Shown: one piece after another, positions 46,273 to 64,000 of the stretch
Layout of the letters: each line of letters opens with the position of its first letter
Numbering within the stretch: the first letter of the stretch is position 1
DNA from: Nitrospirota bacterium
GTDB lineage: Bacteria; Nitrospirota; UBA9217
Length of the DNA: 64,000 bases
NCBI GenBank assembly: GCA_963796285.1
Contig: CAWCKW010000012.1
Span: 1,664,001 to 1,728,000 of the forward strand
Direction of reading: 5' to 3'
Position numbers and translations under genes: made by a program
Notes under the pieces: model-generated
Told to the model about the DNA's origin: nothing
Databases searched by the model: none
Seen by the model: only the letters and a program-made list of their open reading frames with translations

Positions 46273-47601
46273 TCACAACGTCTGTTTCAATTTTATCTCG
46301 AACCGGAACTTCACCTTATTGTCCACTGCCATGCGAGTATCCAGCACTGCCACATCACTGAAAAGCGCGGCCTTCTGGAGTTCGGCCTTCATCTTGTCAA
46401 TGGACTCGAACGATGCAGCTTCACCCTGAAGTTTCAAACGGTCCCCTTCCAGATTGAAATCCTGAAAGCTCACCCGGACTTCCTTGGGGATCCCCTCGGT
46501 GACCGTCTTCATCACGTCGAGCGCCGAGTTTCCCGTGCCAAGGACGCCGAACTTTTTCTTCGCCTCGTCCAGCTTGGTGCGAAGCTGCCGCACCGGATCG
46601 GCAACGACCTTGGCATCGGGAAATACCTGACGGTATACTTCTCTGATCTCCCGGTCAAGTTTTCCGTAGCTTGACTGAACGAGGTAAAGCTTCACCCCAA
46701 TGTTGGTCGCCGCAAACAGGGCCGCAGCCACTCCGGCAATGATGAGCGTTCGTCTCCGCTTTCGATTGCCTGTATCGGCCCGACGATAGGAGAACTCGTT
46801 CTTCCGGAAGTTTATTCCGTCGGACAATGCCAGGCCCAGACTCATGGGGTCTGCGACCTTCTTTCCCCCGAACTCAGGTGTGACCTGTTCCACCGCGATC
46901 CCGAGGTCCGCAAGCGCCGCGCTCAGGTCGTTGTCTATTGACAACAAATGCGCCCTCTCCACCCGCTCATGGCTCCCTGTTTCAAGCGCCTTCAGCATAT
47001 GATTGATCCCGGCTGTCGCACCGCTATTGGAAAAACTTCTGCAGGCTGTTACCGTATTCCCTGACTTGATGCAGAGATCGCTGCCGTCTATCAGCGCGGC
47101 ACTTCCTTCAACAGGGATCATTTTCGACGCAAAATAGAGGCCGATATAAGAAGGTACGATAACCTGCGGGTCAATGCCAGCCGAAGCGAGAAGGTCGAGG
47201 TGCTGTCGCAGGACAGTCTTGGGCAGCAGGATGCCGAGCACCGAGGTCTCTTTCTTCTCGCCGCCCTTTTCGGCCTTGTCCAGGACGAGGTGGTCGATCT
47301 CCATATCGTCAAGAGAAAAGGGCACGCTGTCTTCGATCTCGAAGGGCAAGGCCTTTTCAATGCGCTTGTGGTCGGAAAAGGGCAAGTGGACCATGCGCTG
47401 GCTGAAATAGTGTCCGGGGATCGATGAGACAATCCGGGCGCCCGCCCAGTCCGCGGCCTGCTCTTTCAGGATATCGACAAGCTCTGCATCGGTGGCAAAG
47501 GCGCGGTTGAAGGAATCCGCGAGCTCTATTGTTCGCATTCCCTTTTCCACGACCGAAACCGCCACCCGGCCCTTCTCTATGCTCAGTCCTACGATCTTCA
47601 C
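46273..47601 (-). CDS. gspL: Type II secretion protein GspL
   Basis: Actin-like cytoplasmic domain (LPFEIEDSVPF), INFRK, TM, PilN-like C-terminus. Confidence 0.85.
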   Translation of the reverse strand: MKIVGLSIEKGRVAVSVVEKGMRTIELADSFNRAFATDAELVDILKEQAADWAGARIVSSIPGHYFSQRMVHLPFSDHKRIEKALPFEIEDSVPFSLDDMEIDHLVLDKAEKGGEKKETSVLGILLPKTVLRQHLDLLASAGIDPQVIVPSYIGLYFASKMIPVEGSAALIDGSDLCIKSGNTVTACRSFSNSGATAGINHMLKALETGSHERVERAHLLSIDNDLSAALADLGIAVEQVTPEFGGKKVADPMSLGLALSDGINFRKNEFSYRRADTGNRKRRRTLIIAGVAAALFAATNIGVKLYLVQSSYGKLDREIREVYRQVFPDAKVVADPVRQLRTKLDEAKKKFGVLGTGNSALDVMKTVTEGIPKEVRVSFQDFNLEGDRLKLQGEAASFESIDKMKAELQKAALFSDVAVLDTRMAVDNKVKFRFEIKLKQTL

Positions 47602-48476
47602 AACGCTCTCCAGTATAGTATCTTATACGTGGCTCCTGCGGTGCCTGCAGTGCCCGACCTTGCTATTATAGCTTCAACCTGTTTCGTATATCCTCCGACC
47701 GATGCAAAAGAGCTTACCGTGAATACTGTGCCGGTATAGGTCAGAAGACCTACGATTATCGGTTTGTCCGATCCCACGATCGCGGCTATCTCAGCGTCCG
47801 TCTTGAATGGCTGCTGGACCCTCCGTTCCACGATGTCGGCGGTCGTCCTCGCATCCAACCCGATACTAAGGAGTACATCCGGCGAAGCCGTGTTGATGTT
47901 GATCCGGGAACCAGGAACCACACTCACCGTCACGTCATCCTGCAACTTTCGGAAGTCCTCGTCGCTGAGAAACGTATGGAGTTCCGTGAGCAGGGAGAAG
48001 GTTCTTAGCTCCGCTTGCATCCACCTGGCCATGTCATCAAGTGTATTTTGACTGATCACGCGGGATGTGAAAAGTCTGCTCAACCGGTCGAAAGCAGGGG
48101 TTCCTATTAGTACCTGATGGATATCAAGCTTTCCGCTCTCATCCTCCCACCGTAACTTGAGTTCCGTGTCTCCGGCGCTCACGATTGGAACGACCCCCCA
48201 CTCACCTGGAAGGGGGAGCATATCCTTGAGTTGTTCATTATCTTTGAACTTTCCGAAAATATCTATTCCCGACCGCGCCAGAAAAAAGGCCCGTTGACTA
48301 TCGCGGAAGTTGACCGCCGCGCGCAGACTGATTCTCGTGCCGTAAGCAAACTCGAAAATAAGCGCAATGAGAAGCGCGGTGACCAGGAGTACGATGATCA
48401 GGGCAACACCGCGCTCGTTTTTTCTCCGTCCTCCAGGTACGACGTTACTCCGCGCTCTGAACTCAGCAGTGGTCAC
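47598..48476 (-). CDS. gspK: Minor pseudopilin GspK
   Basis: RGVALIIVL, ARSG, DESGKLDI, ININTA. Confidence 0.9.
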   Translation of the reverse strand: MTTAEFRARSNVVPGGRRKNERGVALIIVLLVTALLIALIFEFAYGTRISLRAAVNFRDSQRAFFLARSGIDIFGKFKDNEQLKDMLPLPGEWGVVPIVSAGDTELKLRWEDESGKLDIHQVLIGTPAFDRLSRLFTSRVISQNTLDDMARWMQAELRTFSLLTELHTFLSDEDFRKLQDDVTVSVVPGSRININTASPDVLLSIGLDARTTADIVERRVQQPFKTDAEIAAIVGSDKPIIVGLLTYTGTVFTVSSFASVGGYTKQVEAIIARSGTAGTAGATYKILYWRAL

Positions 48477-49198
48477 CGTCCAATGTCCACCTTCGTGAGG
48501 TAGGTTGAACCGTTATTGAACAGAAGCGAAATCTGCACCGCCATCGGCAGCGTGGTCCTGTTGTTCCATTCGTCCGACCACACGAAACCATTGAAGTACC
48601 GGAATTGAAGGCTCTTTATGCTGTCGGTCAAGTCGTATTCGACGCCACCTTCGAGTGCGGGAACGTCTTTACTCAATTCACGCTTTTCCCTGCGCATCAT
48701 GACATATCCCGGACCGTCCGTTTTCTGCTTGAAATAGTATCCTACTTCCCAAAGGTCCGTCTCTTTCGTCCCCGGTCTTCGCCAGTTCGTCTGAGTCGTC
48801 AGATAGAGCTCGTCGTATCGTGGTTTATCGTCACCCGTCTCCGGCTGGACCTTCTTGCCGTAAAAAACGGTCAGGGGAGCATTGGAAGTATTCATCCCCG
48901 GATTCACATATGCATTCGCGATGTCGTTGGTGAGCTTCGCGACCAGGGTGCGGGCCAGGTCCGACGCGTCCCGGATTTTCTCGGCCTGCTCCACGTTCTG
49001 GCTGGTCGTAAAAAAACTCGCGTAAATCACGGTGACGATCCCCGCCATGATCGCCACGGCAATAAGCACTTCGAGGAGCGTAAAACCCTTGGACCCGTGA
49101 GACGTGCGAGGTGAGGAGTGAGGAGTTTGAATCCTGAAGCGTGGAACGATCTCCATCCCTGCACTCCGACCCCTGACCCCTGGCCCGCCGTTATTCAT
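48473..49198 (-). CDS. gspJ: Minor pseudopilin GspJ
   Basis: GFTLLEVLIA, LQFRYF..WSDEW, LPMAVQI. Confidence 0.88.
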   Translation of the reverse strand: MNNGGPGVRGRSAGMEIVPRFRIQTPHSSPRTSHGSKGFTLLEVLIAVAIMAGIVTVIYASFFTTSQNVEQAEKIRDASDLARTLVAKLTNDIANAYVNPGMNTSNAPLTVFYGKKVQPETGDDKPRYDELYLTTQTNWRRPGTKETDLWEVGYYFKQKTDGPGYVMMRREKRELSKDVPALEGGVEYDLTDSIKSLQFRYFNGFVWSDEWNNRTTLPMAVQISLLFNNGSTYLTKVDIGR

Positions 49199-49622
49199 AG
49201 CTCACCAGTTCAACCGATTCCTGCCGCGTGCCCTCTTTCCAAAGAACGGCAATCCGGATTTCCATGATCTTGACGACGAGGGGTGTGAGAGCGATGGTCT
49301 TTTTCCAGGTATAGTCCTTAAATTCCTCCTCGGGAAATGTGCCCTCCCCTTCGAAAATCGTGGGTTTTGATTCAGTTGTCGTCTCAACCATGAGACGTTT
49401 TGCCAGCATCGTTGCCGTAGTCATATGCTCCGCAAGCATCACATCCTGCATGGTCCTGTTTTTGAGGCCAAGGAGGGTCACCAGCACCATGGCCATGATC
49501 GATACCGCGACCATCACCTCGAGGAGGGTGAATCCTGCCGAACGCGAAAGGTGGAATGCGGAATTGGGACGTTCTGTTTTCCATTCCGGATTCCGAATTC
49601 CGAATTCCGCATGACGCATCAT
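49191..49622 (-). CDS. gspI: Minor pseudopilin GspI
   Basis: GFTLLEVMVAV; position in the operon. Confidence 0.85.
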   Translation of the reverse strand: MMRHAEFGIRNPEWKTERPNSAFHLSRSAGFTLLEVMVAVSIMAMVLVTLLGLKNRTMQDVMLAEHMTTATMLAKRLMVETTTESKPTIFEGEGTFPEEEFKDYTWKKTIALTPLVVKIMEIRIAVLWKEGTRQESVELVSYE

Positions 49623-50155
49623 CGTTCCTCCACGTATCCCTCGCGGAGTTCGGTTGCGCCCGTGAGCGGCTTCACGAGAAGCGTGAAATCCTTATCCGCT
49701 CCGTCCCGCAGGTGGATACTGGCATTCTCCACCCAACCGTCGGGGGTGAACTGGATATAGGGATCATCGGGATGGCTGCTCACCTTGACCTCGCGAAATG
49801 TCGTCTGTCCGGAGAGGCTCCCCTCGCTTCCAATATCGGAGCTGTACCTCTTGAATTCCCCTGTCTTTTCACCCGTCTGGACCATCACCTCTGCCCAGTA
49901 ACGCCCTTCGTGGACATCGAACCGGAGACGGTATACGGCCTTCCGCGCCTCGGACTCGTCTTTCAGGAAGCGTATCATACCCGTCAGATGCCTGGCGCTG
50001 CGCTTCAGATTCGCCTCGCCGAGCTCGCCGAGGCGGGGGATAATCAGCGAAAGCATGACGCCCAGGATAACGATCACCACCGTGAGTTCGATGAGCGTAA
50101 AGCCCTGAGCTGTCTTTGTTCCTTGCCTCGTGCCCGCTGCCCCTTGACCCTTCAT
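49619..50155 (-). CDS. gspH: Minor pseudopilin GspH
   Basis: GFTLIELTVV, IQFTPDG, PLTG. Confidence 0.85.
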   Translation of the reverse strand: MKGQGAAGTRQGTKTAQGFTLIELTVVIVILGVMLSLIIPRLGELGEANLKRSARHLTGMIRFLKDESEARKAVYRLRFDVHEGRYWAEVMVQTGEKTGEFKRYSSDIGSEGSLSGQTTFREVKVSSHPDDPYIQFTPDGWVENASIHLRDGADKDFTLLVKPLTGATELREGYVEER

Positions 50156-50158
50156 AAC

Positions 50159-50617
50159 TTACTGCATCTTCCAGCTTTCAATGTCCGCGTTATTCCCCTC
50201 GCCGCCGGGCTCTCCGTCAGCGCCATAGGAAGTGATCTCGTACTCCCTGCCCTCCTTGCCCTCGGTGCCCTCGTTGCTCAAGGATTTGTAGTCATAATCC
50301 TTGCCCCAGGGGTCCTTCGGGATGCGGGCGGGCTTGAGATAGCCGCCTTCTCTCCACTTGGTGGGAATGCGGCCGACCTCGGGCTTCTTAATCAAGGAGT
50401 CGAGTCCCTGTTCCGTGTCCGGATAAAATCCATTATCGAGTTTGTATGCATCGAGTGCGCCCTCCAACGCACGGATCTGCGTCTTGGCCACCTCGACCTT
50501 TGCTTTCTCTTCCTGCCCCAGGAATTTCGGAAGCACCAGGCCCGCGAGCAGGCCGAGAATGATGATCACGACCATGATTTCGATAAGGGTGAACCCTTGC
50601 TGATTCTTTTTACTCAT
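50159..50617 (-). CDS. gspG: Major pseudopilin GspG
   Basis: GFTLIEIMVV, YKLDNGFYP, PKDPWG, SYGADG. Confidence 0.95.
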   Translation of the reverse strand: MSKKNQQGFTLIEIMVVIIILGLLAGLVLPKFLGQEEKAKVEVAKTQIRALEGALDAYKLDNGFYPDTEQGLDSLIKKPEVGRIPTKWREGGYLKPARIPKDPWGKDYDYKSLSNEGTEGKEGREYEITSYGADGEPGGEGNNADIESWKMQ

Positions 50618-50689
50618 GTTAGTTCTCCTTTTCCTTCATTCTCATATGCTGCGATGTGTTCCTTGACCTTGGCCCCGGGACCCCGTCAC

Positions 50690-51910
50690 TTATCTCACTC
50701 CCGAGCTCATTTCGAGCATCGGCAGCATGATGGCGATCACCACGAACCCGATGACCAGGCCCATGGCCAGGATGATCACCGGCTCCAAAAGCGCCAGAAG
50801 ACCGGTCAAACGCGTCTCGACGGTCCGGTCGAAAGAGTCCGAAATCTTGAGCAGCATCTTTTCGAGCTCGCCGCTCTTTTCCCCAACGGCCACCATCTGA
50901 ACAACCACCGGCGGGAACAGGCCGCTCCGGCGGAGCGGGTCGGCGATAGACTCGCCTTCGCGCACGTTTTCCCGCGCCTTCTGAACGGCGTTCGCGAGCA
51001 CCGAGTTGCCGATCACGTTTTTGACGATATCGAGCGCCGCGAGCGTGGGGACGCCGCTCTGGAGAAGCGTCCCGAGCGTGCGCGTGAACCGGGAAACGGC
51101 GATCATGCGGATGAGCGTTCCAAAGACCGGCAGCCGGAGCAGCCGCGCATCGATATTCTCCTTCCCCGCCTGCGTCAACGCGTATCGCCTGAAGTAGTAC
51201 GCGCCCCCGGCAAAGGCAAGCAGGAGCGCCCACCAGAAGGTCGAAAGGAACCGCACCACGCCGAGGAGCACGAGCGTGATGACGGGAAGCTGCTGCTTCA
51301 TATCCTGGAACATGCCGATGATTCGGGGCATCACAAAGCTGAAGATGAAGATGAGCATGCTTACGCCGATGACCGTCATGAATGCGGGGTACGCTAGGGC
51401 GGCGGACATCCTGCCGCGGAACCTGACCTGATCGTCAAGAAAATCTGCAAGCCGGTCAAGGGTGATCTCGAGGGTCCCGCTCGCTTCGCCCGCGGAGACC
51501 ATGTTGATGTAGAGCGGGGAGAAGACCTTCGGGTTTTCCTTCAGCGCATCGGCCAGCGATGCACCCTCGCGCACGCCGTCGCGCACCGACGAGAGCGCCC
51601 CTCTCAGTCCGGCATTCTCCTCCTGCTCCACGAGAACGGACAGCGCATCCATGAGCGGAAGACCGGACGATAGAAGCGTGGCAAGCTGGCGCGTAGCATT
51701 CGCCACATCGCCGAGCCGCACCCTGGCACCAAACGTGAAGGACAGGGTCTCCCGGCGAGCTGCCCGTGTAGAAGCTCCCTCGTGGATCTCGAGGACGATG
51801 ATCCCCTCTTTTTTCAGCTTCGACTTGACAGCCTTGAGACCTTCGCCGTCCTGAACGCCGGAAACGTTGCTGCCGCTGCTGGTAACACCTTTATATTCAT
51901 AGACAGGCAT
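50690..51910 (-). CDS. gspF: Type II secretion inner-membrane platform GspF
   Basis: TRQLATLLSSG, AGEASGTL, ALAYP, VGEKSGEL, LEPVII. Confidence 0.95.
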   Translation of the reverse strand: MPVYEYKGVTSSGSNVSGVQDGEGLKAVKSKLKKEGIIVLEIHEGASTRAARRETLSFTFGARVRLGDVANATRQLATLLSSGLPLMDALSVLVEQEENAGLRGALSSVRDGVREGASLADALKENPKVFSPLYINMVSAGEASGTLEITLDRLADFLDDQVRFRGRMSAALAYPAFMTVIGVSMLIFIFSFVMPRIIGMFQDMKQQLPVITLVLLGVVRFLSTFWWALLLAFAGGAYYFRRYALTQAGKENIDARLLRLPVFGTLIRMIAVSRFTRTLGTLLQSGVPTLAALDIVKNVIGNSVLANAVQKARENVREGESIADPLRRSGLFPPVVVQMVAVGEKSGELEKMLLKISDSFDRTVETRLTGLLALLEPVIILAMGLVIGFVVIAIMLPMLEMSSGVR

Positions 51911-51992
51911 GGTATGAAATCAGAAGACAGGAGTCAGACATCAGAAGTCAGGAGTGAATCGCATCTCCTGGCTGCCGGCTCCCGGATCCTGA

Positions 51993-53681
51993 CTACTGCG
52001 TCTCCTTCTGCGTCACCCTTACCACCTCATCCACGGAGGTGATCCCGGCGAGTACCTTGTCCGCACCATCCTGCCGGAGCGTACGCATGCCTTTTCCCAC
52101 GGCCAGCGCTTTCAGCATGGCCGCGTCTGCGTTCTTCATGATATGCTGCCGGACCTCGTCGTCCACGCTCAGGAGCTCATAGATCGCGCTCCTGCCGAGG
52201 TAGCCGGTCTGGAAGCATGCCGTGCACCCTTTTGCGCGGTATACGGTCGCCCCGGCGGCAACGGTCTTGATCTCGAGCTCCGCTATCTCTGCGGGCGTGA
52301 TCGGGTAGGGCTCCCGGCACGCCGTGCAAAGGACCCGAACAAGCCGCTGGGCAAGGATCGCCATGACCGATGATGAAATGAGGAACGGTTCGACCTTCAT
52401 GTCGATCAGCCGGGTCACCGCGCCGGCCGAGTCATTCGTGTGGAGCGTGGAGAACACGAGGTGGCCGGTGAGTGCCGCCTGGATCGCGATCTCCGCGGTC
52501 TCCGAGTCCCGGATCTCTCCCACGAGGATCACATCCGGGTCCTGCCGGAGCACGGAGCGGAGTCCGGCGGCAAAGGTCAAATGGATCTTCGCATTCACCT
52601 GGATCTGGCCGATGCCCTTGAGCTGGTACTCGATGGGGTCCTCGATCGTGATGATGTTCTTGTCAGGCGCGTTGATCTTCGAGAGCGCGGCATAGAGGGT
52701 CGTGGTCTTGCCGCTGCCTGTGGGGCCGGTCACCAGAATGATACCGTGGGGCCGGGTGATGTGTTCGTTGAACCGCGTGAGGGTATCGCCGGAGAACCCG
52801 ATCTGCTCGAGCGGCAAAAGCGCGCTTTCGCGGTACAGGAGGCGCAGCACGATGCGCTCGCCGAAGGCCGTGGGCACGATCGAAACGCGGATGTCCACGT
52901 CCTTGCCGCCGATCTTGATCCGCATGCCGCCGTCCTGCGGCAGCCGCCGCTCGGCGATGTTCAGGTCCGCCATGATCTTGACGCGCGACGCGATGCTGGC
53001 CTGGAAACGCTTCTGGATCGTCAGGATATTGTAGAGGATGCCGTCGATGCGGAACCGGGCCACCATCTCCTTCTCAAAGGGCTCGATGTGGATATCGCTC
53101 GCGCGTTCGCGGATGGCCTGGGACAATAGCGAGTTCACCAGGCGGATGATCGGCGCGTCATCGGTGGCCTCGAGCAGGTCCGTGGGTTCATCGAGCTCCG
53201 CGGCAAGGAACGAAAGGTCCTCTTCCTCCATCTCCTGCACCGTCTCCTCGGCGCGGTTCATGTCCTCACTGTGCAGGCGGTTGACGGTATCGAGGATCGT
53301 TTCGGAGGGGGAAAGACAGAGGGAGATTTCCGTGTTGAACAGGACCCGGAGGTCATCGATCGTGGAAAGCTCGAGCGGTTCGGAGGTGGCAATGAGCACG
53401 CTGCCGTTCTCGCGCCGGAGCGGGATCGCCACCGCTTTTTTCGCATAGGTGATCGGCAGCTTGAGCGCAAGCTCCCGGTCGATCTCACCAAGGTCCGCCT
53501 GGAACGGCAGGCCGAGCTGCGCGCCGAGCGCCGTGAGCACCTCGGCCTCGGTCACAAAGTTGAGCCGGACGAGCAGCGTACCTATCCGGCCTCCCCTCTT
53601 CTTCTGGAGGTCAAGCGTCTTTTTGAGCCGCTCGGCTGAAAGCCCTGACTCAACGAGTATCTCGCCGAGCAGGCGTCTCAC
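51993..53681 (-). CDS. gspE: Type II secretion ATPase GspE
   Basis: ASDIHIEP, GPTGSGKTTT, LRQDPDVILVGEIRD, TGHLVFSTLH. Confidence 0.95.
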   Translation of the reverse strand: MRRLLGEILVESGLSAERLKKTLDLQKKRGGRIGTLLVRLNFVTEAEVLTALGAQLGLPFQADLGEIDRELALKLPITYAKKAVAIPLRRENGSVLIATSEPLELSTIDDLRVLFNTEISLCLSPSETILDTVNRLHSEDMNRAEETVQEMEEEDLSFLAAELDEPTDLLEATDDAPIIRLVNSLLSQAIRERASDIHIEPFEKEMVARFRIDGILYNILTIQKRFQASIASRVKIMADLNIAERRLPQDGGMRIKIGGKDVDIRVSIVPTAFGERIVLRLLYRESALLPLEQIGFSGDTLTRFNEHITRPHGIILVTGPTGSGKTTTLYAALSKINAPDKNIITIEDPIEYQLKGIGQIQVNAKIHLTFAAGLRSVLRQDPDVILVGEIRDSETAEIAIQAALTGHLVFSTLHTNDSAGAVTRLIDMKVEPFLISSSVMAILAQRLVRVLCTACREPYPITPAEIAELEIKTVAAGATVYRAKGCTACFQTGYLGRSAIYELLSVDDEVRQHIMKNADAAMLKALAVGKGMRTLRQDGADKVLAGITSVDEVVRVTQKETQ

Positions 53682-55888
53682 CGGGTGCCCTCCGCGGGTG
53701 CTGCTGCCTTTTCCACAGCAGGCGCGGATGATACCGTGGTCGTGGGCTCGCTCTTCACTGCCTCCGCAGCAGGTGTGGTTGACGTCGGTGAGCTTGTTAC
53801 CGCTCCTGCGGCGCCACCATCCGCGGACAGTGCCGCCGGCTCCACGTTTCCTCTATTGTCCGATGGTTTAAGCATCGAGTGCTGTCCGTCGCTTTTCTTC
53901 TCGATGTGATATTCCTTTCGGAATTCGTTGAGAATATTTTCCCTCTCTCTGGTCAGTTCCGCGGATTCCTCTGCGGTCTTGATAATGTGGGGAGTGATGA
54001 AGATCATGAGGTTGGTCTTTTCAATCTGGTTCGTCTTATACTTGAACAGCCATCCAAGGACCGGGATGTCGCCGAGGAGCGGCACCTTGATGGTCGAAGA
54101 CGTGACGTTATCACGGATCAGACCGCCGATCACCATGGTCTCACGGTCCTTCACCACGACCGTCGTGCTCGCAGAACGTTTGCTGGTTGTGGGGCCTGCT
54201 TCGTTCGCGGCGGAGGTCGCGATCACATCAGAGATCTCCTGATTAACTTCAAGCCGCACGTTGTCGTCTGAGGTGATCTGCGGCGTCAGCGACAGCTTGA
54301 TGCCTACGTCCTTGCGCTCGTACGTGTTTAATAACGCCGCTCCGCCTGTTGTCGCGTTTTGCGTCTGGGCGACTTTAAAAGGGACGTTTTGACCGACCAT
54401 GATCTCGGCCTTCTGGTTGTCCGTGGTGAGAATATTGGGCGTGGACAATACGTTCACATCCGCATCGTTCTGGACAGCGTGAAGGAGGGCGCCAATGTTG
54501 AGATACTCGATGCCCTTGAACGTGAACGTGCCTTTGACTGCGGCAACCGCAAGGCCACTCGTCGTTGCAAGGGCAGCCGGCCCATTCACCATCGCGTTGC
54601 CTATTGTTCCGAAATTCGTGCCGCCAATGGCCATCGTGGCGGTGTTGCCTTCGAGCTGGTCGAGATTCGCCGCCTGGAACTCAAAACCAAGCTCGCGCTG
54701 CTTTGTGAGGCTCATTTCAATGATGGCGGTCTCCACATAGACCTGACGGCGCCTGACGTCCAGCTTCTGGATCACGTCCTTCACGAGCTCAAAATCAGTT
54801 GGCGAGCCAACGATGATCAGTGAATTCGTGGATTTGTCCGCCGAGACATTGACGGGACCTTCCAGGATCGTGTTGGTACTGGCCTGGCCCACGCTCACAC
54901 CCTGAGGAGGCGCCGGCAGCCGCGCGACGAGCGCTGTCAACAGCTTGGCGATGTCCTCGGCATTGGCGTTTTTGAGGTTGTAAACATTGATCTTCCCTCT
55001 TCCTTCCGGCGCCGGAACGTCCATGGCGTGGATCAGGACCTCGATCTTTTTAATATTGTATACGGAATCGGTGATGATGATGGAATTCGTGTTGGGATAG
55101 GCGATCAGCAGGCCGTCCTTGGTGACGAGCGGGGTAATGGCGCGCACCATATCCTGGGGATTGACATATTTCATCCTGATGAGCTTGGTCACAAATCCTT
55201 CACCCCGGCCATCTCCGTCCTGGATCACCTTTAACCCGCTCTGCCGGGCCGAGGCCGCCGGTATGATGCGGGTGACCGTTCCGTCTTCCACTGCCGTGAA
55301 ACCTTTGATCTCGAGCGCCGACAGGAACACCTGGTACGCCTCGTCCGGCGACATCTTTGTCGGTGTCATGATCGTGATCTTGCCGGTCACCCGCTCATCG
55401 AGGATAAAGTTCCTGCGGGTGAGCTCGCTCATCACCTTGATGAGGGCGCTGATTTCGATGTTCGTAAAGTTCAGGGTAACGTAATCGTCGCTTGATTTTA
55501 TCTTTCTGATCTCTGCCTGATTGGCGGAAGTGGCGGATACAGCAGAGATGGGCACAGCCCGTGCCGGTTCGGCCCTCCGAGGCAGCGCAGGTGCGGGTTC
55601 GACCCTGGCCGGGAGCGTCGGTGCAGGTTCGGCCCCCCGATGCAGTGTCGGTGCGGGTTCGGCCGTCGGAGTCAGCGTTGATGCAGATTCGGCCGTAGGA
55701 GTAATCAGCGTCGATGCAGGTTCGACCGTAGGAGTAACCAGCGTCGATGCAGATTCGGCCGTAGCAGGCAAGGTCGGAGCGGGTTCAACCGCAGCAGGTG
55801 CGACTGGTTCGTTCGTACCGTTCGTCGCGTATACTACGGATGCACTCACAAGCCCTATCACAAGCAGCAGGGCCGCAATTTTTTTCAC
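53678..55888 (-). CDS. gspD: Secretin GspD with an N-terminal tandem-repeat linker
   Basis: LNFTN, N-domains, QVYVETAI, VLSTPNILT, KVPLLGDIP. Confidence 0.95.
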   Translation of the reverse strand: MKKIAALLLVIGLVSASVVYATNGTNEPVAPAAVEPAPTLPATAESASTLVTPTVEPASTLITPTAESASTLTPTAEPAPTLHRGAEPAPTLPARVEPAPALPRRAEPARAVPISAVSATSANQAEIRKIKSSDDYVTLNFTNIEISALIKVMSELTRRNFILDERVTGKITIMTPTKMSPDEAYQVFLSALEIKGFTAVEDGTVTRIIPAASARQSGLKVIQDGDGRGEGFVTKLIRMKYVNPQDMVRAITPLVTKDGLLIAYPNTNSIIITDSVYNIKKIEVLIHAMDVPAPEGRGKINVYNLKNANAEDIAKLLTALVARLPAPPQGVSVGQASTNTILEGPVNVSADKSTNSLIIVGSPTDFELVKDVIQKLDVRRRQVYVETAIIEMSLTKQRELGFEFQAANLDQLEGNTATMAIGGTNFGTIGNAMVNGPAALATTSGLAVAAVKGTFTFKGIEYLNIGALLHAVQNDADVNVLSTPNILTTDNQKAEIMVGQNVPFKVAQTQNATTGGAALLNTYERKDVGIKLSLTPQITSDDNVRLEVNQEISDVIATSAANEAGPTTSKRSASTTVVVKDRETMVIGGLIRDNVTSSTIKVPLLGDIPVLGWLFKYKTNQIEKTNLMIFITPHIIKTAEESAELTRERENILNEFRKEYHIEKKSDGQHSMLKPSDNRGNVEPAALSADGGAAGAVTSSPTSTTPAAEAVKSEPTTTVSSAPAVEKAAAPAEGTR
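55550..55790 (-). repeat. About eight tandem 30/33-bp coding repeats (AEPAPTLxxx) in gspD
   Basis: VEPAPTLPAT/AESASTLVTPT/VEPASTLITPT/AESASTLTPT/AEPAPTLHRG/AEPAPTLPAR/VEPAPALPRR/AEPARAVP. Confidence 0.9.
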
Positions 55889-56013
55889 TCTTGTTGTCCT
55901 CCGTGTAAAATAGCAATGACGCGGAGACTCGGGGATGCGGGGAAAATTGTTGCCATTATCCTTTTCTCTCCCCATCTCCGCATCACCCCGTCACCGCGTC
56001 TGTTCTTTATCTC

Positions 56014-56835
56014 TTATCGTATTTCGTAGTTCAACGTCTGAGGCGCACCGTTCCGGATCAGGTCGATGGATATATTCCGCTCCGTCCTCAGACCTTGATA
56101 GAGCTGGAAGAACTTGGCAGGGTCGTCCACTGCCTGAGAATTGACCTTCTGGATCACATCGCCGTTCTTGAGGCCGATCTTCTCATAGATACTGTTGGGG
56201 GTGATCTCGCTGATGCGGAACCCCACGGTCTTCCCCTGCTCCATGTAGGGCAGCGCCCGCGCTTGCGTCAGGATCTGGCTCATGTTCTCGGTGCTTGCGA
56301 CCATTTCCCGCTGGTCCACCATGTACTTGCTATCGGAGACCTTCTTCACGCCGTTGCTGCTGGGAGTTTGTGTGTTCACGATCTTGGCGTCGTCTTCAAG
56401 CACGATGTCGACCATCGATCCCTCGGCCCTCTGGAGCGTGACCTTGTCGCGCTTCACCTTGACGAGTTGAGAGCCGTCCGGCAGCTTCTGGTGCATCCGG
56501 TAGAATGCCTGACCCGTGCTGTCCTCGAGCACGGCGCCTGAAAAACTCTCGCCCTCGATCGTACCGATGAGCTTATAGTTCGCGGCCTCGACCGCGGGTC
56601 CACCCGACGGGCCTTTGCCTTCGCCGAAGAGCCCGCGCTCCAGGATGGAGGTATAATCGCTCAACTCCCGGCGAGGCTGCAAGACCGGCCGGTCGCGCTC
56701 CAGGGGCGTCGTAAACTTGGGTGCAGCTTCGAGGCTCCTTCCGATCATGGCATCAACGGTATCGGCGAGGAAATAGGCTGATACAGTAAGGAGCGCGATT
56801 AAAACGAGGGTGTATAGTGTTTTGTTTTCTTTCAT
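56014..56835 (-). CDS. gspC: Type II secretion protein GspC with PDZ domain
   Basis: TM, KLIGTI HR domain, GLKNGDVIQKVN PDZ domain. Confidence 0.9.
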   Translation of the reverse strand: MKENKTLYTLVLIALLTVSAYFLADTVDAMIGRSLEAAPKFTTPLERDRPVLQPRRELSDYTSILERGLFGEGKGPSGGPAVEAANYKLIGTIEGESFSGAVLEDSTGQAFYRMHQKLPDGSQLVKVKRDKVTLQRAEGSMVDIVLEDDAKIVNTQTPSSNGVKKVSDSKYMVDQREMVASTENMSQILTQARALPYMEQGKTVGFRISEITPNSIYEKIGLKNGDVIQKVNSQAVDDPAKFFQLYQGLRTERNISIDLIRNGAPQTLNYEIR

Positions 56836-57005: not shown

Positions 57006-58938
57006 TTACGGGTCCTTAAACAACTCCCCGAACATCCGCTTCATTGCGCCTGGTTCATGCACGGCCGCGGCCTTTGCCTCTTTCCACCTGCGTCTCAGCT
57101 TCTTTACATTTTCTCCCTTCGCTTCTTTCGCAATGAGCTTCTTATCGATGGCATCAAGCCGCGCCAGAGCATCGCGAGTGCCTTTGACCAGGGCCCGGTA
57201 CTTGGCAGGATCGGATTTCGGGATCGAAAAATCGCCGCTTGTTTTCCAGATTTCTCCCAGATGCAACCAGGCGGCAAAGTTCTCGGTCTTGCCTTCGGGC
57301 ATGAGCACGATTTTCGAGTTTGCTTTAATATCTTGCACGCGAAGGCCATTGCTGTCGGCAACGACCTTCTGGCTTCCCGTGAACGGCTCCGCGCCTTGCG
57401 AATCGAAATAGCGCCATTTCACCTTCGAGATCTGGACCGTTGAATCGTGGCAGCTGCCGCAGGTGCGCGACTTCCCGAGCGGATGCGCGACCTCTTCGAT
57501 CTGGAGCCAGGCAAGATAGTTGTTATTTCCGCCCGGGAAGCTGAACGTCCCGAGCTGGACATAGGCATCCCTCGTCTCGCCCTTGGGCCAGCGGAAGGTG
57601 AGACCCGGCTTCGGCGCGATGGTTTCCTTGATGCCTCCGGCGCTGTTCGGCCAGATCTTCGTCGGCATCCACATGCCGTGCTGGTCCTTGAGCAATATCG
57701 GCGGTTCCTGCGGACCGTAATACAAGGAATACTTCTTGAACGGGTTTGGTTTTGATGAGATCATGCCCGGGCCCCAGGACGTCATCTCGTAGCCGCCAAG
57801 GACCTTCACGTGGCAGGCCGCGCAGGCAAGGTTCTTGTGCACGCTCGTTGCCATTGCCTGCTCCACTTCGATGTGGCAGTCCTGGCACGTTGCCTTGCGC
57901 TCGATATGCCCCATGCCTCCCGGACCGGTCTCGTGGCAGTCAACACACACCAGTTTCTTCGCCACGTGCACGTCCTCGGGCAGGCCCTCGGGCTCGGAGT
58001 AATCCTTGCCGAGATAGCTGTCCCCTCTTCTCCGCTCCATGGTCCCGGCGTGGCAGACAAAGGAGCTCCTGCCGCCTCCGGTGCAATTGGCAGCAGGCGG
58101 TACGCGGCCCATGGCATGCACCCCGCGCTCGCGCGTGGGCGCGTAATGGCAGTCCAGGCAGCCGGCATGACAGAGATTGCACGCCTTCTGCTTCGCGATC
58201 GCCTGATCGCGGCTCAGCGGTTCGTTGATCTGTTCCATGATCTTCTGGGTATTTTCGAAGGAGAACTTGTTGCCTTCCGCCCTGCCGACCGGCTGGGTGT
58301 CCGCGAAAGACGGCCCTCAATTATTAGGGCCGTGAATATCGTTCCAGACGCGCATCGAGCGCTGACGGAAATTCGCGCCCATGATGCTCGTGTCGAACTG
58401 TTTCACCTGGTCAGGATGGCAGGCAGACTTTCCGCAGGTCTTTGCCGCAATGGAAGGATCATAGCCAAGAGTGACCGGGTTGCGGTCATGCCACATGAGC
58501 GTGCCGACCTCGTAGTCCAGCTCACCGTTACTCAGGCGGGGAAGCATGTCGCGCAGGCGGTCGTCCCCTGACGGCAAAAGCTGTTTCACATGACCTTTGC
58601 GCGGCATGATGTTCAGATCGTTATCCAGGACGATAAGCTTCAGCATGCCCCTGTGCGCCGTGGCGGGATTGTCGGACAGGCCGTTGCCCAAGGTGGCAAT
58701 CGCGGCACTCGGTGTTCGGATGGCGCGACTCCTTCTGCACCTGCTCGCGGGTCATCACGAACTCGGGATACCCGAGAGCGGCCATCCTGTCTTTATTCGA
58801 ATGGCATTGGACGCACTTGTCGCTTGACTGGTAACCGGAGTAGAAATAGATGAAGAGCAGAACAAGGGCGAGCTGGATGAAAAGGATGCTCATCCCGCGT
58901 TTGCTGCCGAAGAATTTCCAGAGTTTGCCGATGGCCAT
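57006..58938 (-). CDS. Membrane-anchored multiheme cytochrome c, putative selenoprotein (UGA at 58317-58319; indel near 58690)
   Basis: N-terminal TM; eight CXXCH motifs plus CX4CH and CX9CH; the frame continues through the TGA (GPNN-U-GPSFAD); SECIS-like hairpin follows. Confidence 0.8.
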
Positions 58939-59003
58939 GATGAATAAGATACCATAGGCAGGAGGTCATGACAATGCTAAAAAAGAAGTGAGGAAGTGGA
59001 AGC

Positions 59004-59062
59004 GTGGAACGCGCGCCTGACGCGCCGCTTCTGGCGCGTCGCTGTCTAGGCGCTGGTTGAAA
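59004..59062 (-). mobile_element. attC-like site (59 bp), last in the array
   Basis: TTTCAAC...CCTAGAC...GTCAGG...GTTCCAC palindrome with an extrahelical base. Confidence 0.7.
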
Positions 59063-59134
59063 TCGTATCTGCTTCGATTTTGCATACAAGGTATTTTGGG
59101 GTCGAGACTTGATAAAGCAGTTTGAAAATTAATT

Positions 59135-59797
59135 TTACACTTGTGCCCTAAATAGTGCCATACAACCAATAATGTCTATACTTACATTTTGGAAGCGTTT
59201 TGATAATTCTTCCATCAGTTCGTCATACCCATCTTCGATATTTGAAAATGTTTTGTCCTTATTCGCCATATGAATTACAAATTTTGCTGCTAAATTCTTT
59301 TTTACGTTTTTATTTAATATAGTGCACCCAAAGACAACGCCTCCAGGATTCATTACCTGCTTTGCATTATCAAAGACAACTCCTTTGTCCTTCAATGTTC
59401 CGGGAATACAATGGAGCAATCCATTTAAGGCTACTGAATCAAATCGTCGAGGGCCTGTATCAAAGGGTTCGAATACGTCTCTGCAATATACCTCGGGAGA
59501 ATATCGTTCAACGCGTTTCCCTGTGACTTCGAGACAATTTTGATTAAGATCCAACAATGCAAGTCGCGGCGTTTTTGTTGGGAACTCACAATTATCGAGC
59601 ATATAGCCGGTTCCTACTCCCGCATCAAGATGATTTGCAGAGATATTCCGGTTATAGTTTTCCAGTATAAAATGGGAAGGACATTTCCAGATAAAACGAC
59701 AGTTTATTCCGAGAATCAGGAAATCGTAGAATGATAAAAAAAACTTACTATATATGGCTTGTCCGGCTTTAATTGCTTCTTTGGTAACATTTGCCAT
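59135..59797 (-). CDS. Class I SAM-dependent methyltransferase (gene cassette)
   Basis: HLDAGVGTGY, LLDLN, FDSV...LLHCIPG; low GC. Confidence 0.88.
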   Translation of the reverse strand: MANVTKEAIKAGQAIYSKFFLSFYDFLILGINCRFIWKCPSHFILENYNRNISANHLDAGVGTGYMLDNCEFPTKTPRLALLDLNQNCLEVTGKRVERYSPEVYCRDVFEPFDTGPRRFDSVALNGLLHCIPGTLKDKGVVFDNAKQVMNPGGVVFGCTILNKNVKKNLAAKFVIHMANKDKTFSNIEDGYDELMEELSKRFQNVSIDIIGCMALFRAQV

Positions 59798-59808
59798 GGT
59801 TGTCTCCT

Positions 59809-59867
59809 TTCTAACGTTACGGCTCAGCGGAGGGCGTAGCCACGTCCGCTGGAGCCGAGGGTTCGGC
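59809..59867 (-). mobile_element. attC site (59 bp)
   Basis: GCCGAAC-N5-CTCCAGC...GCTGAG...GTTAGAA. Confidence 0.88.
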
Positions 59868-60595
59868 TTGGTCGTTCACGCACAGACGCTCTAGAAACCT
59901 TTTTGTCTTTGCATAAGTCCGACACACATTTACGCGGTACTCCTCAACCAGATCACCGAACACGGCATCTTCCTCCGGAAACTGCTCTAGACCAATGGTC
60001 CGAGGGGAAATGTATGAGATTGATCCCCTGTAGTAGGAGCACCTCATGAGGTCAATGAACAAATCACGGGCAAAACCGTGTTTCCTAGCTTTTTGATCCG
60101 CGAAGGCAAGAAAGGTGGTGCCTTTGTTGACCTTGTAGAAGTATTCTTTCTCCTTTGTGTCTGCCGTGGTCAGTACCTTTGTGAACCGTTTGTAGAAACA
60201 ATCCAATCGACCACTTTCGCCCTGCGAGTTATCGTAAACCACTACGAACAGGTAGACCGGCATTCCGAGGCCTCTCCAATACTCCAAGGTCCTCTCGTCA
60301 ATTTGCAGGTGTGGGTTCCCAATCACGTACCTGTGAAGCTCATTAAAACCTCTATGAGGGCCGATGTCTTCAAGCGTCACGTTCTGCTTTGAAAGCGTCT
60401 TGACCTGTACAGCATAGAGGAGTCCGTCGGTTTATCCCCATAAACCCACTCGCAGATGTAATCAATTCCAATGTCTTTCAGTCCGACTATGTGGTGGGGC
60501 AGAGAGTAGTCGGACACGAGTGCCTCGAAGAACGATTCACCCTTTATGCCCGCCTTGGCCTGGGCTGTATACTTCTTATATCCCGAGTCAGTCAT
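59817..60595 (-). CDS. DUF4365-like restriction-endonuclease-fold protein (cassette; indel near 60420)
   Basis: GIKGE..F, DIGIDYICE, AVQVK, LEYW...PVYLFVV. Confidence 0.65.
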
Positions 60596-60624
60596 GATCA
60601 ACCTACAATCTGTGTGCAATCAAT

Positions 60625-60680
60625 GCCGAACGACGAGCTCACACGCCGCGAAGCGGTCGGCGTGGAACGACAGGTTAGCG
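60625..60680 (-). mobile_element. attC site (56 bp)
   Basis: CGCTAAC (contains the upstream gene's stop)...TTCCAC...GTGAG...GTTCGGC. Confidence 0.85.
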
Positions 60681-61193
60681 TTTGCTTTGGTGTTCTTTGG
60701 AGTATTGCCAAAGCGCCATATCTAACTCACGCACGGATTTGCCGAGGTCTTTCGCAACAGTTCTGCAAACTCGGACATAATCTTCCCAGAATCCGAATGT
60801 ATACTGAGAAGGTTTATCTATTGAAAGGCTCCACAAGGCCCTAACATCGAGGATGGGATAGAGACTGATTGACACAGAAATGAAGAATTACCGATGCAGT
60901 CGGGAAAATGTACACCTTCAAGAAGCGTTAGGGAGCCAATTTTTGACAGCTCACATTTCGCAGAAAAGGCAAAAGCGGTTAGTTCCTTAACAAGGGCGTG
61001 TGGATTTGACTTTGCAAGCTCAGCCCGTCGTTTAGATTTCCAGAAGCAAATCTCATATAGTTGCGTAACGGTAAGATAGCCTTGAGCTGGGCCGATCTGA
61101 TGGTATTTTTCAAGTTGTATCTCGGCCTCATAATTGTAATGGCCTTGGTACTCTTGAATCTTCTTTACTGGAATTCGCAGTTTCGTATTTCAT
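60675..61193 (-). CDS. Hypothetical helix-hairpin-helix (DNA glycosylase-like) protein (indels)
   Basis: Reconstructed ...ICFWKS...LTLLEGVHFPTASVILHF...YPILDVRALWSL...RELDMALWQY. Confidence 0.55.
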
Positions 61194-61270
61194 GCAGTTC
61201 CTTAAATTACAGCTCTTGCTATACGATGAAATCAACTTTTAGTAAAACCAGCCGTGATTGTTTCCATTAA

Positions 61271-61795
61271 TTACGATCCAACTTGCCTGATCCAATCACG
61301 AATTGATGAACCAATACGTTCTATATCTGCGTTGCCTAGTTCGCCGCTGTGCATGATGACATTACGGGAACGCTCAAGCGTATTTCATGATTTGTCGAAC
61401 CCAATCAAGTGATTGAAGGTGGTCCTCAAAGAGCGACCAATTCTGATTTATTATTGAAGCTAAGTCCCGAAACTCAGTATAATTGATGAGTGAGTCTCCC
61501 CGTTGAGCATGCCACCTAATCTTATTTTCCTCTTCACGACGAGATTCGGCCTTTGCCCTAATCTTCTCGGATACCGCAGTGTCCCACCAGGTTTCACCGA
61601 CTTCTTCCAGCTTTTTTTTATTATAAATGCGCGAACCGAATTCTCAAAAGCGGCTATTGCAGTGTAAACCGTTGCCATTTTTCGTGCACATGTGACCAGC
61701 TCATCATCAAGTAATTTGATCGATAATCGTTCAGCAGTAGATGCGTCAAGAATAGATGAGCTATGAAGCTTACTTTTTCGTCCAATACAACCCAT
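61271..61795 (-). CDS. Swt1-like HEPN domain protein (indels; 5' end possibly truncated)
   Basis: FENSVRAFI, ...LERSRNVIMHSG (Rx4H), DWIRQ. Confidence 0.7.
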
Positions 61796-61796
61796 C

Positions 61797-61877
61797 AGGG
61801 TCAGGTCTAGATTTCATGTCATCTCAATAATAAGAAGATGCTAAAAAGTCAAATGGCAATTAAGTAGACCTGACCCT
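61797..61877. mobile_element. 81-bp MITE/REPIN-like element with 13-bp inverted ends
   Basis: AGGGTCAGGTCTA ... TAGACCTGACCCT around an AT-rich core. Confidence 0.7.
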
Positions 61878-61888
61878 AAATGCTTCCC

Positions 61889-62617
61889 CTAACCACTGTC
61901 TTTATTAATAGTCTTAAACCAATCTTGGTGTTTTGGCAGTACATCAATAAATTTAATCCGCGATGGATCTTGTTTAAAGTTCTTTTTAAGATCAATCAAT
62001 AAATTGAACCTTATGAACTGAGCTGTAGACAATAAAATTCTTATGCTGTCTTTTACAGCGGTACTTTTTTCCGATAACTCGTGTACTTTCATTTCGTCCC
62101 CGACTGTTCTTATAGGATGCGACTCTAGTCGGAGCTTCTCGTTAAGTTGAAAAAGTTTATTTTGATAGTCGCATGCCAATTTAAGATGAGAATAATAAAA
62201 AATTAGACGCTGGACCAAGTCAGCACTCAATACCCTCGTAATATCGGAAAGATTACTGCGATAAAAAATATCATTATAGCCATCAACTGCAAAATTTGGA
62301 TGATTATCATTGTCGTAACCAAGGTCGATAATTTTGTGATTATCAATTTCAAAATACAAGCACCGTTGCAGGTTCTTCTTAAGAAGTCTGCGACCAAAAT
62401 ACCATTCTCCCAATTTTATTAATACAGTGATAATTCCGGCTGAAATAGCACCATAAACGACAGCAGTCAGTTTAGAGGAAGGGTCATCGGAAGTGTTATT
62501 ATTTTGGATAGGAGAAGAGATTGTTCTCTGCGCATGTGCGGGCGTCAACTCACTTGTGCCTGCATAGCTGATGCTCAGTGATCCTAATAATAGAATTAAA
62601 AATATGCTTTTTCTCAT
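61889..62617 (-). CDS. Hypothetical membrane protein (cassette)
   Basis: Signal-like N-terminus plus one TM segment; low GC. Confidence 0.65.
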   Translation of the reverse strand: MRKSIFLILLLGSLSISYAGTSELTPAHAQRTISSPIQNNNTSDDPSSKLTAVVYGAISAGIITVLIKLGEWYFGRRLLKKNLQRCLYFEIDNHKIIDLGYDNDNHPNFAVDGYNDIFYRSNLSDITRVLSADLVQRLIFYYSHLKLACDYQNKLFQLNEKLRLESHPIRTVGDEMKVHELSEKSTAVKDSIRILLSTAQFIRFNLLIDLKKNFKQDPSRIKFIDVLPKHQDWFKTINKDSG

Positions 62618-62686
62618 TTTGCAAACCCTACTAGTTGTGAAGCGGCCGTAGTATAGGTGATTGTGTTCAAGCCGATTATTCTCCAG

Positions 62687-62748
62687 GTTCAACGTAGCGA
62701 TCACCGGTCTCGCCAGAGCGCGGGTACTCGTGGATTGCACGGTTATAC
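62687..62748 (-). mobile_element. attC site (62 bp)
   Basis: GTATAAC (contains the stop)...AATCCAC...GTGATC...GTTGAAC. Confidence 0.82.
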
Positions 62749-63639
62749 GCTGATCACATTACGCGCCTTATTTTGGCGACATTCTCGCCGATCTTCATAA
62801 ATGGCCGCTTTTAGAACCTGAAGACAAATTTTTGCGGTATGCTCCCTGGGGCTAAAGCCGGAAGTCATTTGCTGGAACGGATGGATATAGTTCCTGAAGT
62901 CTCGTAGTGAGTGGCTAAACTTATGGGTGTCATATTGAATAAGCCCGATATCTCGCGCCACATCAATAAATGCGCTCAACGACCAATCATAGAACGGCTT
63001 CACTTTTCCAGCTAGATTCCTTTGGAGACGATTTTGAGGAATCAAATTGTTTTGGGTATTTTGACTGCCAAACCCAGAAGAAGCCCCTCAAGGGTGCTAC
63101 CAGCGAGCAAAATAACTGATAAATAGGCACTAGCCGGGAAGCAACGTTCGATTTCTCTAATTCTTTCCTGAAGGATGTCAGAAACGGCTCCTTCTAGACC
63201 GAGCCTTTGCGACCGAAACATCTGCGAACTCTCTCTTCAAAGAATTCATCTTCGCTATCTGACGCCTCTGGTGTTTCGTCAATCTCGATCTTCTGTAACT
63301 TAGTAAAGCCAATTTCTGCACCACTTCGGTTACCTTCCATTTGTCAAACGCATATGTATTTATTAAACTCGGCAATGTGTCTTATCCAACTCGCTGATTC
63401 GCCCAATAAAGTTAGCAGGAGACAGAACAGCCCGTATGCATTTGTCGAGCTCCGGAGTACGATTGATAGCCTTTAGCTTTTCGTCGGTATACATCCATCG
63501 GGATGGAAAACCTTGCCCATATGAATCATTGAAACCCGAGCGCATTAAAGAACTGCACAAGCTGCGGTCCTTACCGATACTCTGTCTCCTCATTAATCAG
63601 GATCCTGAGCTTCTCAAGTGATTTTGGTGTTAGGATCAT
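62743..63639 (-). CDS. Hypothetical protein with an AbiJ-like N-terminus and a HEPN-like C-terminus (cassette; indels)
   Basis: MILTPKSLEKLRILINEETEY...FNDSYGQGFPSRW; C-terminal LRDFRNYIHP. Confidence 0.55.
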
Positions 63640-63665
63640 CGATCTATCCTTGCGTTTCATGAAGC

Positions 63666-63716
63666 ACATAACCGCCGGGAGCTCAAGCTGATCCCCGCAG
63701 AGGGATCTGGTTGTAG
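63666..63716 (-). mobile_element. Degenerate attC- or attI-like site at the head of the array
   Basis: CTACAAC...GCTTGAG...GTTATGT; the GTTAT end pairs with the R'' of the same cassette. Confidence 0.45.
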
Positions 63717-63834
63717 TGTCTCGGTTCTGCGGCGCTTTTTGCCGCGGGTCACAGTAACGCATGGCAAAGCTCCGGCATTCTCGCGGCGGTTTCTCAGCCG
63801 CGAGAACCAGTTATTGTAGGGACGGGAACTAGTT

Positions 63835-63960
63835 ATCTACATATATATGCATGCATCTACCGCTATATGCATGCATCTATCTGTAGATGCATGAAAGTAT
63901 ATACAGGTAGATGCTTATTACCAATTATCATAATAACAAGAAGCATCTATATGTATATGC
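63835..63960. repeat. AT-rich array of ATGCATCTA-type direct and inverted repeats
   Basis: TATATGCATGCATCTA at 63844 and 63864; inverted pair at 63897-63916 and 63941-63960. Confidence 0.75.
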
Positions 63961-64000
63961 TTTTCCAGAGAGGCCGCAGTATCGTCCCTATTGAATTGAA

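Follow-up and report, generated by a model that had tools for sequence, protein, structure and literature searches.

A candidate selenocysteine-containing decaheme cytochrome c gene in Nitrospirota

The stretch of DNA analysed here (the window, 64,000 nucleotides; positions 1,664,001 to 1,728,000 of contig CAWCKW010000012.1, assembly GCA_963796285.1) comes from a Nitrospirota bacterium of the lineage UBA9217 and carries on its minus strand, at 57006-58938, a gene for a multiheme cytochrome c that is interrupted by an in-frame UGA. The first-pass annotation, made from the letters of the window, took this codon to be read as selenocysteine (Sec) in a multiheme cytochrome with the help of a selenocysteine insertion sequence (SECIS) hairpin, an interpretation that is supported by the sequence comparisons described below. 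The apparent stop in the cytochrome gene almost certainly encodes Sec, and the probability that the locus is a single gene that encodes a membrane-anchored c-type cytochrome of about ten hemes and whose internal UGA would be decoded as Sec is put at roughly 85%.

Layout of the cytochrome gene

The features of the gene, in window coordinates and in the order of transcription, are as follows.

57006-58938, minus: decaheme cytochrome c gene, whole; ATG at 58936-58938, TAA at 57006-57008, about 640 residues
58831-58893, minus: N-terminal hydrophobic segment MSILFIQLALVLLFIYFYSGY, behind basic residues; predicted membrane anchor or uncleaved signal
58801-58815, minus: heme motif 1, CVQCH, in the upstream frame; kept in orthologs
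58693-58707, minus: heme motif 2, CRDCH, in the upstream frame; kept in orthologs
58687-58691, minus: frame break, one extra base in a TTGGG run (gene strand), placed by alignment with 18 other loci
58416-58436, minus: heme motif 3, CGKSACH (CX4CH); plain CXXCH (CGKCH) in distant relatives
58317-58319, minus: in-frame UGA in the conserved loop HGPNN-U-GPSFAD, from ortholog alignments
58272-58311, minus: SECIS-like hairpin, whole, from folding and comparison
58167-58181, minus: heme motif 4, CNLCH
58146-58160, minus: heme motif 5, CLDCH
58050-58085, minus: CX9CH heme motif CTGGGRSSFVCH
57933-57947, minus: heme motif CVDCH
57873-57887, minus: heme motif CQDCH
57810-57824, minus: heme motif CAACH
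57447-57461, minus: heme motif 10, CGSCH

Under translation table 11, the gene falls into three open reading frames (ORFs) on the minus strand. The first (58621-58938, 105 amino acids) holds the basic residues, the hydrophobic helix, CVQCH and CRDCH; the second (58317-58691, 124 amino acids) runs with the C-terminal sequence ...WNDIHGPNN into the TGA at 58317-58319; and the third (57006-58238, 410 amino acids) lies in the same frame as the second, with 26 sense codons (GPSFADTQPVGRAEGNKFSFENTQKI) in between. This in-frame continuation through the TGA, from which the first-pass annotation had started, was reproduced. The UGA frame alone contains six CXXCH motifs, CGKSACH and CTGGGRSSFVCH, and together with the upstream ORF the total comes to eight CXXCH, one CX4CH and one CX9CH motif, i.e., ten. 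While the motifs that had been ascribed to the joined protein are all found, its single frame is not: the anchor and heme motifs 1 and 2 are one base out of register with the UGA frame, a frameshift that had gone unnoticed and that is the one correction needed to an otherwise confirmed observation.

The orthologs are uninterrupted over 633-664 amino acids, and the open frames of the loci that cover the UGA site extend over about 640-680. From the N-terminus, the intact proteins display a basic stretch, one hydrophobic helix, the first and second CXXCH, the CX4CH motif and the Sec loop, which are followed by two adjoining CXXCH motifs, a CX8-9CH motif with an invariant GGGR, an ERRRGD loop and three further CXXCH motifs; the C-terminal part comprises a beta-rich domain, the last CXXCH, a second beta domain and long helices. 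In the window, heme motifs 4-10 span 57447-58181, with the beta-rich domains between and behind the last two motifs. A structure predicted for an ortholog from a 52-sequence alignment reached a predicted local distance difference test score (pLDDT) of 90.5 and a predicted template-modelling score of 0.88, in which the N-terminal segment corresponds to a helix at residues 13-37; a prediction from 17 close sequences reached a pLDDT of only 37. Across the wide family, only two Cys positions outside the canonical motifs are invariant, namely the Sec/Cys site itself and the first Cys of CX8-9CH, and the Pro three residues ahead of the Sec/Cys column is likewise invariant in an alignment with 14 relatives of 28-55% identity.

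The in-frame UGA, its hairpin and the frame break

The Sec reading is adopted because UGA alternates with Cys codons at the site, because a hairpin accompanies the UGA and because the genome contains the Sec machinery. In a search of 41 genomes (40 relatives and this genome), the gene was found in 26, and the site column of the 19 loci that cover it, this genome included, holds TGA in 16/19 and TGT/TGC in 3/19. A scan of the phylum (E up to 1e-60) detected the family in 143/401 sampled Nitrospirota genomes, including 52/63 genomes of the family-level group to which the source genome belongs; among the matches listed, one TGA is present in 47/50 site-covering rows at >=64% identity, a count made by hand from these matches, beyond which 26 further matches exist. 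Among more distant genes, at about 50% identity, those with a '1 TGA' flag have the codon at this column without exception (11/11, as GPQN-U-GPSFAD). Pooling yielded 117 loci with 97 distinct genes, and the Cys or UGA that the first-pass annotation had looked for at the GPNNxGPSF position is what these homologs carry: 50 encode Sec and 47 Cys (TGT/TGC), with no other residue. At 28-55% identity, the column is an invariant Cys in the 14 relatives, which were retrieved by a search of 1.84 billion representative proteins. A FastTree phylogeny of the 97 genes requires at least five changes of the Sec/Cys label and places the Sec forms mostly in two separate clades with Cys forms nested within them. 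The hosts are anaerobic Nitrospirota, namely Thermodesulfovibrionales, Dissulfurispiraceae and Candidatus Magnetominusculus. The codon is also encountered outside the assembly, since a metagenome contig covering 58279-58424 retains the TGA and differs from the window solely at 58326.

It could be argued that the UGA is an ordinary stop separating two cytochromes, a small N-terminal one and a C-terminal one of 410 amino acids. The window does offer an ATG 26 codons past the TGA, and public gene calls list C-terminal pieces as proteins of their own, under the names 'cytochrome c3 family protein' or 'hypothetical'; among the 120 best matches in the protein collection, the majority are fragments of about 340-430 amino acids that are cut at the UGA and are devoid of the anchor and the first three hemes. 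However, a Met stands at the downstream 'start' in only 3/17 aligned sequences, the 26 codons in between show protein-level conservation in this frame, and 47 homologs run straight through the site with Cys, such that the homologs are not split into two genes here. Furthermore, the part behind the UGA lacks the signal or anchor that export of a c-type cytochrome would presumably require, and the hairpin is kept almost exclusively where the UGA is present. An ordinary stop is therefore considered extremely improbable. A natural Cys homolog used as the query against the ESM Atlas retrieved generic 'cytochrome c family' clusters only.

The hairpin was found much as the first-pass annotation had drawn it. 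Its lower stem is formed by GUCUUUCGC (58303-58311) pairing with GCGGAAGGC (58272-58280), and the apical stem-loop CCCAGCC-GGUC-GGCAGGG occupies 58280-58297, where 58291-58297 pairs with 58280-58286 around the GGUC loop at 58287-58290; the apical loop starts 27 nt past the UGA. At least six of the seven apical stem pairs can form in 50/50 Sec genes versus 3/47 Cys genes. The two Sec clades place different stems at the same position (CCCNGCC/GGCNGGG and UACCUCC-GKC-GGAGGUA), and among 44 distinct Sec-form sequences the pairs vary as GC/UA/CG/GU, CG/AU/GU/GC and CG/UA/UG at stem positions 27, 24 and 23, respectively. The first base of the loop is G in all 44 (GGUC in 34, GGC in 5 and GUC in 5), while the Cys forms exhibit 34 different 'loops' at the hairpin position. 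One Cys form that is sister to a Sec gene, L138 from a Dissulfurispiraceae metagenome-assembled genome, retains the full 8-bp hairpin, which is likely a fossil SECIS, as expected from a recent Sec-to-Cys change.

Bacterial SECIS elements, as modelled in bSECISearch, present an apical loop with a G about 16-37 nt past the UGA, and the loop of the E. coli fdhF element contains GGUC; the predicted hairpin features fit this model. An Rfam search returned nothing relevant, the best match being engA RNA (E 0.66), far under its gathering score. The sel genes that the first-pass annotation expected are encoded in the genome, with profile scores of 511 bits for selA, 370 bits for selB and 350 bits for selD, a gene that contains a TGA too; ARAGORN predicts three tRNA-SeC genes, one of them beside selAB. 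By the established bacterial mechanism, SelB in complex with Sec-tRNA(Sec) would bind the G-first apical loop of the hairpin 19-40 nt downstream and would hand over Sec once the ribosome arrives at the UGA, which would yield a protein of about 640 residues with its heme domain on the periplasmic side.

Several observations weigh against reading the locus in this way. Sec decoding is predicted here from DNA sequence, and the 97-gene pool is biased, 11 of its loci having been picked for their '1 TGA' flag. The stability of the window hairpin equals that expected by chance (minimum free energy -17.7 kcal/mol, z = 0.00, 91/200 shuffles equal or better), and within the closest clade alone the covariation does not exceed that of shuffled alignments (a score as high in 153/500, as many cells paired in 221/500). 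In that clade, 84% of cells are nevertheless paired versus 37-61% for slid partners, and a covariation signal emerges only with the inclusion of the second Sec clade together with the Cys forms. The evidence for a SECIS is comparative and, as such, strong, while stability alone constitutes no evidence. Lastly, the gene is out of frame in the window, and no near-identical read or contig was found across the break.

The break itself is narrowly located. The window reads CAC CTT GGG CAA CGG versus CAC CTN GGN AAY GGN in 18 other aligned loci, and contigs from 4/4 metagenome runs (DNA contigs from relatives) have one base fewer at 58687-58690, although the strains are about 95% identical there and are not the source. 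Programmed +1 frameshifting at CUU-GGG was rejected, as the extra base occurs in none of the 18 other loci. The extra base at 58687-58691 is probably an assembly error rather than biology, because fdnG, fdnH, dsrA and one selD copy are broken likewise. The fdnG gene, whose Sec codon in the window had been noted correctly in the first-pass annotation, changes frame four times after that codon, near 21225, 20040, 19700 and 19450; fdnH is split over two overlapping frames; dsrA on contig 13 (69167-70310) is found in two overlapping frames of 311 and 237 bits; and one of three selD copies is broken into three frames. The split of dsrA and a TGA in the adjoining dsrB-like match are further signs of single-base assembly errors.

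Alternatively, the insertion may be real and the gene a pseudogene in the source genome only, with the anchor and two hemes cut off, whereas the family would be a working selenoprotein elsewhere. The extra base stands in the assembly, is absent from 18/18 other loci and 4/4 metagenome runs, and was spanned by no near-identical contig, all of which would suit a lesion private to this genome. However, no second lesion is found in the rest of the 1.9 kb gene, where all heme motifs and invariant residues are intact, the break sits in a short homopolymer, several core genes of this assembly carry breaks of the same type, and the ortholog in a sister genome (L004) displays a frame break near its start too. 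Decay of the gene in this organism is hence deemed unlikely, and the uninterrupted, Sec-encoding gene is the reading retained.

The same assembly shows other irregularities. Contigs 2, 4, 5, 7, 8, 9 and 11 are small copies of large-contig parts with 94-99% identity and many gaps, and appear to be strain variants that remained in the bin; because of such duplicate contigs, selD is present three times. The formate dehydrogenase operon of the window occupies 18149-22001 on the minus strand (fdnG, fdnH, cytochrome b and fdhE), with the Sec UGA of fdnG behind ...AFDNQARV at about 21513-21515.

Genomic surroundings and possible function

The cytochrome gene is followed immediately downstream by a type II secretion operon that looks complete and extends over 44755-56835 on the minus strand (gspC with a PDZ domain, secretin gspD, gspE, gspF, gspG ... 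gspL). The gspC neighbour and the operon are common only to genomes of the same genus, and in other genera the cytochrome gene is flanked by radA and a TRIC-type channel. In the source genome, radA starts just past the window end, and it lies directly upstream of the cytochrome gene in 8 relatives. The region between the two genes, 58939-64000, has a G+C content of 36-48% versus 54% for the genome and encodes a methyltransferase and small ORFs; it may be an inserted island.

Clues to function come from distant structural and profile comparisons of the C-terminal two-thirds, in which weak signals agree on an enzyme-type multiheme core. The family profile aligns with residues 138-221 of the pentaheme nitrite reductase NrfA (PDB 6V0A; E 2.2e-7, 82 columns), and this alignment places the stretch past CX9CH together with CVDCH and CEACH on heme motifs 2 and 3 of NrfA. 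A Foldseek comparison with octaheme tetrathionate reductase (OTR; PDB 1SP3) covers 371 columns with E 2.1e-3 and probability 0.99, but with template-modelling (TM) scores of 0.21/0.30 and a root-mean-square deviation of 12.9; OTR was the only hit with a probability above 0.2 in a fold library that ends in April 2026 and probably does not contain the structures of MccSep. The latter enzyme, also named ExtKL, is encoded by GSU2937-2936 and represented by PDB 9WT8-9WTC; the available excerpts of Mihara et al., Sci Adv 2026, describe it as a polysulfide reductase that contains five hemes, has its signal peptide cleaved off and bears Sec in a D-G-U-P loop of an immunoglobulin (Ig)-like domain at the C-terminal end (PMC13510729). 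Comparison with an 11-sequence MccSep alignment by hhalign gave a local match around the heme 1-3 region of MccSep (probability 30%, E 5.7e-4), in which GGGR aligns with the GTGR of MccSep and PEDVHV..CxDCH with the motif of its active-site heme 2. The same excerpts give R83 as the substrate-binding Arg of MccSep (PMC13510729), which was equated with the Arg of GTGR by residue counting.

Based on these comparisons, the invariant loop HGPNN-U-GPSFAD may adjoin a heme in a catalytic core of the NrfA/OTR type, which also contains the invariant CX8-9CH and GGGR; Sec could act there as a redox-active nucleophile that reduces or oxidises a chalcogen compound, for example polysulfide, tetrathionate/thiosulfate or selenite, and electrons from the quinone pool may enter via the anchored N-terminal hemes. 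A selenium-heme active site that works on a sulfur or selenium chain compound and is fed by the N-terminal hemes is offered as a tentative proposal. Several points speak against it: the likenesses on which the functional part is built are weak (TM 0.21-0.30, hhalign 30%, an 82-column match to NrfA), the NrfA and MccSep alignments indicate different hemes as the active one, and the gene neighbours yield no functional clue, be it in the flanks within the genus or in those of other genera.

In another scheme, the invariant Sec/Cys residue would ligate a heme axially and adjust the potential of an electron-transfer chain, and the protein would be a wire or a quinol dehydrogenase that has no substrate site itself. 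The first-pass annotation had suggested that Sec may be either an axial ligand or a catalytic residue. Ligation by His/Cys is known in MccSep, TsdA and SoxAX, as stated in the excerpted text (PMC13510729). With about ten hemes to ligate, the wide family has only five invariant His residues outside the motifs, so that other ligands are needed for some hemes, and no gene for a partner enzyme is linked. However, Sec is an expensive residue that is usually retained where nucleophilicity matters, and the protein contains large beta domains as well as the invariant GGGR and ERRRGD loops. The protein is peptide-rich, and its mass of about 7 kDa per heme is likewise set against the scheme, as catalytic cytochromes exceed 7 kDa per heme according to the portion of the source at hand (PMC7096707). 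A purely ligating role is consequently regarded as doubtful, and catalysis at the Sec loop is slightly favoured over it.

At its most specific, the catalytic proposal would describe a second, independently evolved selenium-heme enzyme, i.e., a quinone-linked, anchored decaheme reductase or oxidase of sulfur chains whose active site is made up of the Sec loop and CX8-9CH/GGGR; in this complete form, it is unlikely to hold. The odds are similarly low that such an enzyme, widespread in anaerobic Nitrospirota that include magnetotactic and sulfur-disproportionating lineages, could fill a missing step of sulfur metabolism. Sec-containing multiheme cytochromes have been an experimentally grounded enzyme class only since 2026, via MccSep. 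Were a second, unrelated family to place Sec at an invariant position, selenium-heme chemistry would be shown to have more than one origin. The decaheme family would offer a clear target for biochemistry. Since database entries are cut at the UGA, heme counts and localisation predictions are wrong for these organisms.

Comparison with known multiheme cytochromes

Family-level searches were made with several libraries. Pfam returned only a sub-threshold Cytochrome_C7 match for the decaheme protein, NCBIfam returned nothing above noise and no curated model that names the family, and a PDB sequence search from the close alignment found nothing under E 0.02. A literature search on selenocysteine multiheme/decaheme cytochromes, Nitrospirota and Thermodesulfovibrionia retrieved only MccSep and reviews, although data S1 and S2 of the MccSep paper might list relatives. 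In the portion available of a 2026 selenoprotein review, the table contains cytochromes three times, as ExtKL, the GSU2204 family and the OTR family (PMC13188914), and Sec-containing members of the OTR family are marked there as 'GenBank annotated' (PMC13188914).

The first-pass annotation had left open whether the gene belongs to the ExtKL/MccSep family. The two share much in outline: both are multiheme cytochromes c in which UGA and a hairpin downstream of it specify a single Sec, both have Cys-type relatives, both occur in Nitrospirota (Thermodesulfovibrionia), and in both cases annotation cuts the gene at the UGA. They differ in size and motif number (about 640 amino acids and ten heme motifs here versus 439 amino acids and five there), in the N-terminus (a predicted anchor versus a cleaved signal peptide) and in the place of Sec, which here sits in HGPNN-U-GPSF, between heme motifs 3 and 4, and there in the D-G-U-P loop of an Ig-like domain at the C-terminus. 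There is no family-level sequence match between them, and both genes coexist in this genome. The ExtKL model NF040886 (cut-off 250 bits) did not match the decaheme protein at E up to 1, while it scores 591 bits on the true ExtKL of the same genome, which lies at 64304-65584 of contig 1 (L024:787-2106, minus) and encodes 439 amino acids with five CXXCH motifs and the sequence ...HSIPDG-U-PTPNR. The model passes its cut-off in 19/41 genomes, and among the matches listed none falls at the coordinates of the decaheme gene. A BLASTP comparison with the ExtKL of the same genome produced 16-residue heme-motif matches only. A weak match to ExtJ, which in Geobacter is a small protein encoded in the ext selenite/tellurite cluster, is found on contig 12 at 1625013-1625291 (22.7 bits, under cut-off), about 39 kb before the window.

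OTR of Shewanella oneidensis (PDB 1SP3) is the sole structural neighbour and a multiheme enzyme of sulfur-compound respiration. Unlike the decaheme protein, it has another heme count and no anchor, and its model TIGR04315 (cut-off 375 bits) gave no match at the decaheme gene at E up to 10. That the gene might nevertheless be a member of MccSep/ExtKL, or of the OTR family with its Sec members, is suggested by the single Sec that all these multiheme cytochromes possess, by the local hhalign match to MccSep and by OTR being the best fold hit. However, the silence of both family models at this gene, the confinement of the BLASTP matches to heme motifs and the different architecture of MccSep, as far as the excerpts of its description extend (PMC13510729), make membership very improbable. 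For MccSep/ExtKL, the NF040886 and BLASTP comparisons argue for a different family, and the sequence comparisons as a whole support a decaheme family that is not MccSep/ExtKL and is distinct from OTR.

Further likenesses concern the core and the N-terminal part of the protein. NrfA (PDB 6V0A, 8BCX) resembles it in the 82-column core match only; the decaheme protein has no CXXCK motif, contains one inserted extra heme motif and is far larger. The N-terminal part recalls the membrane-anchored quinol dehydrogenases NapC, NirT and NrfH, in which a helix is followed at once by CXXCH, but it contains two hemes rather than four, and the corresponding models scored below their cut-offs (PF03264, NapC/NirT, 16.6 bits versus 24.1, E 0.0066; TIGR03153, NrfH-like, 18.5 bits versus 134, E 0.0016). 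Viewed against these systems, the decaheme cytochrome is a new selenoprotein family within a known kind, the Sec-containing multiheme cytochromes.

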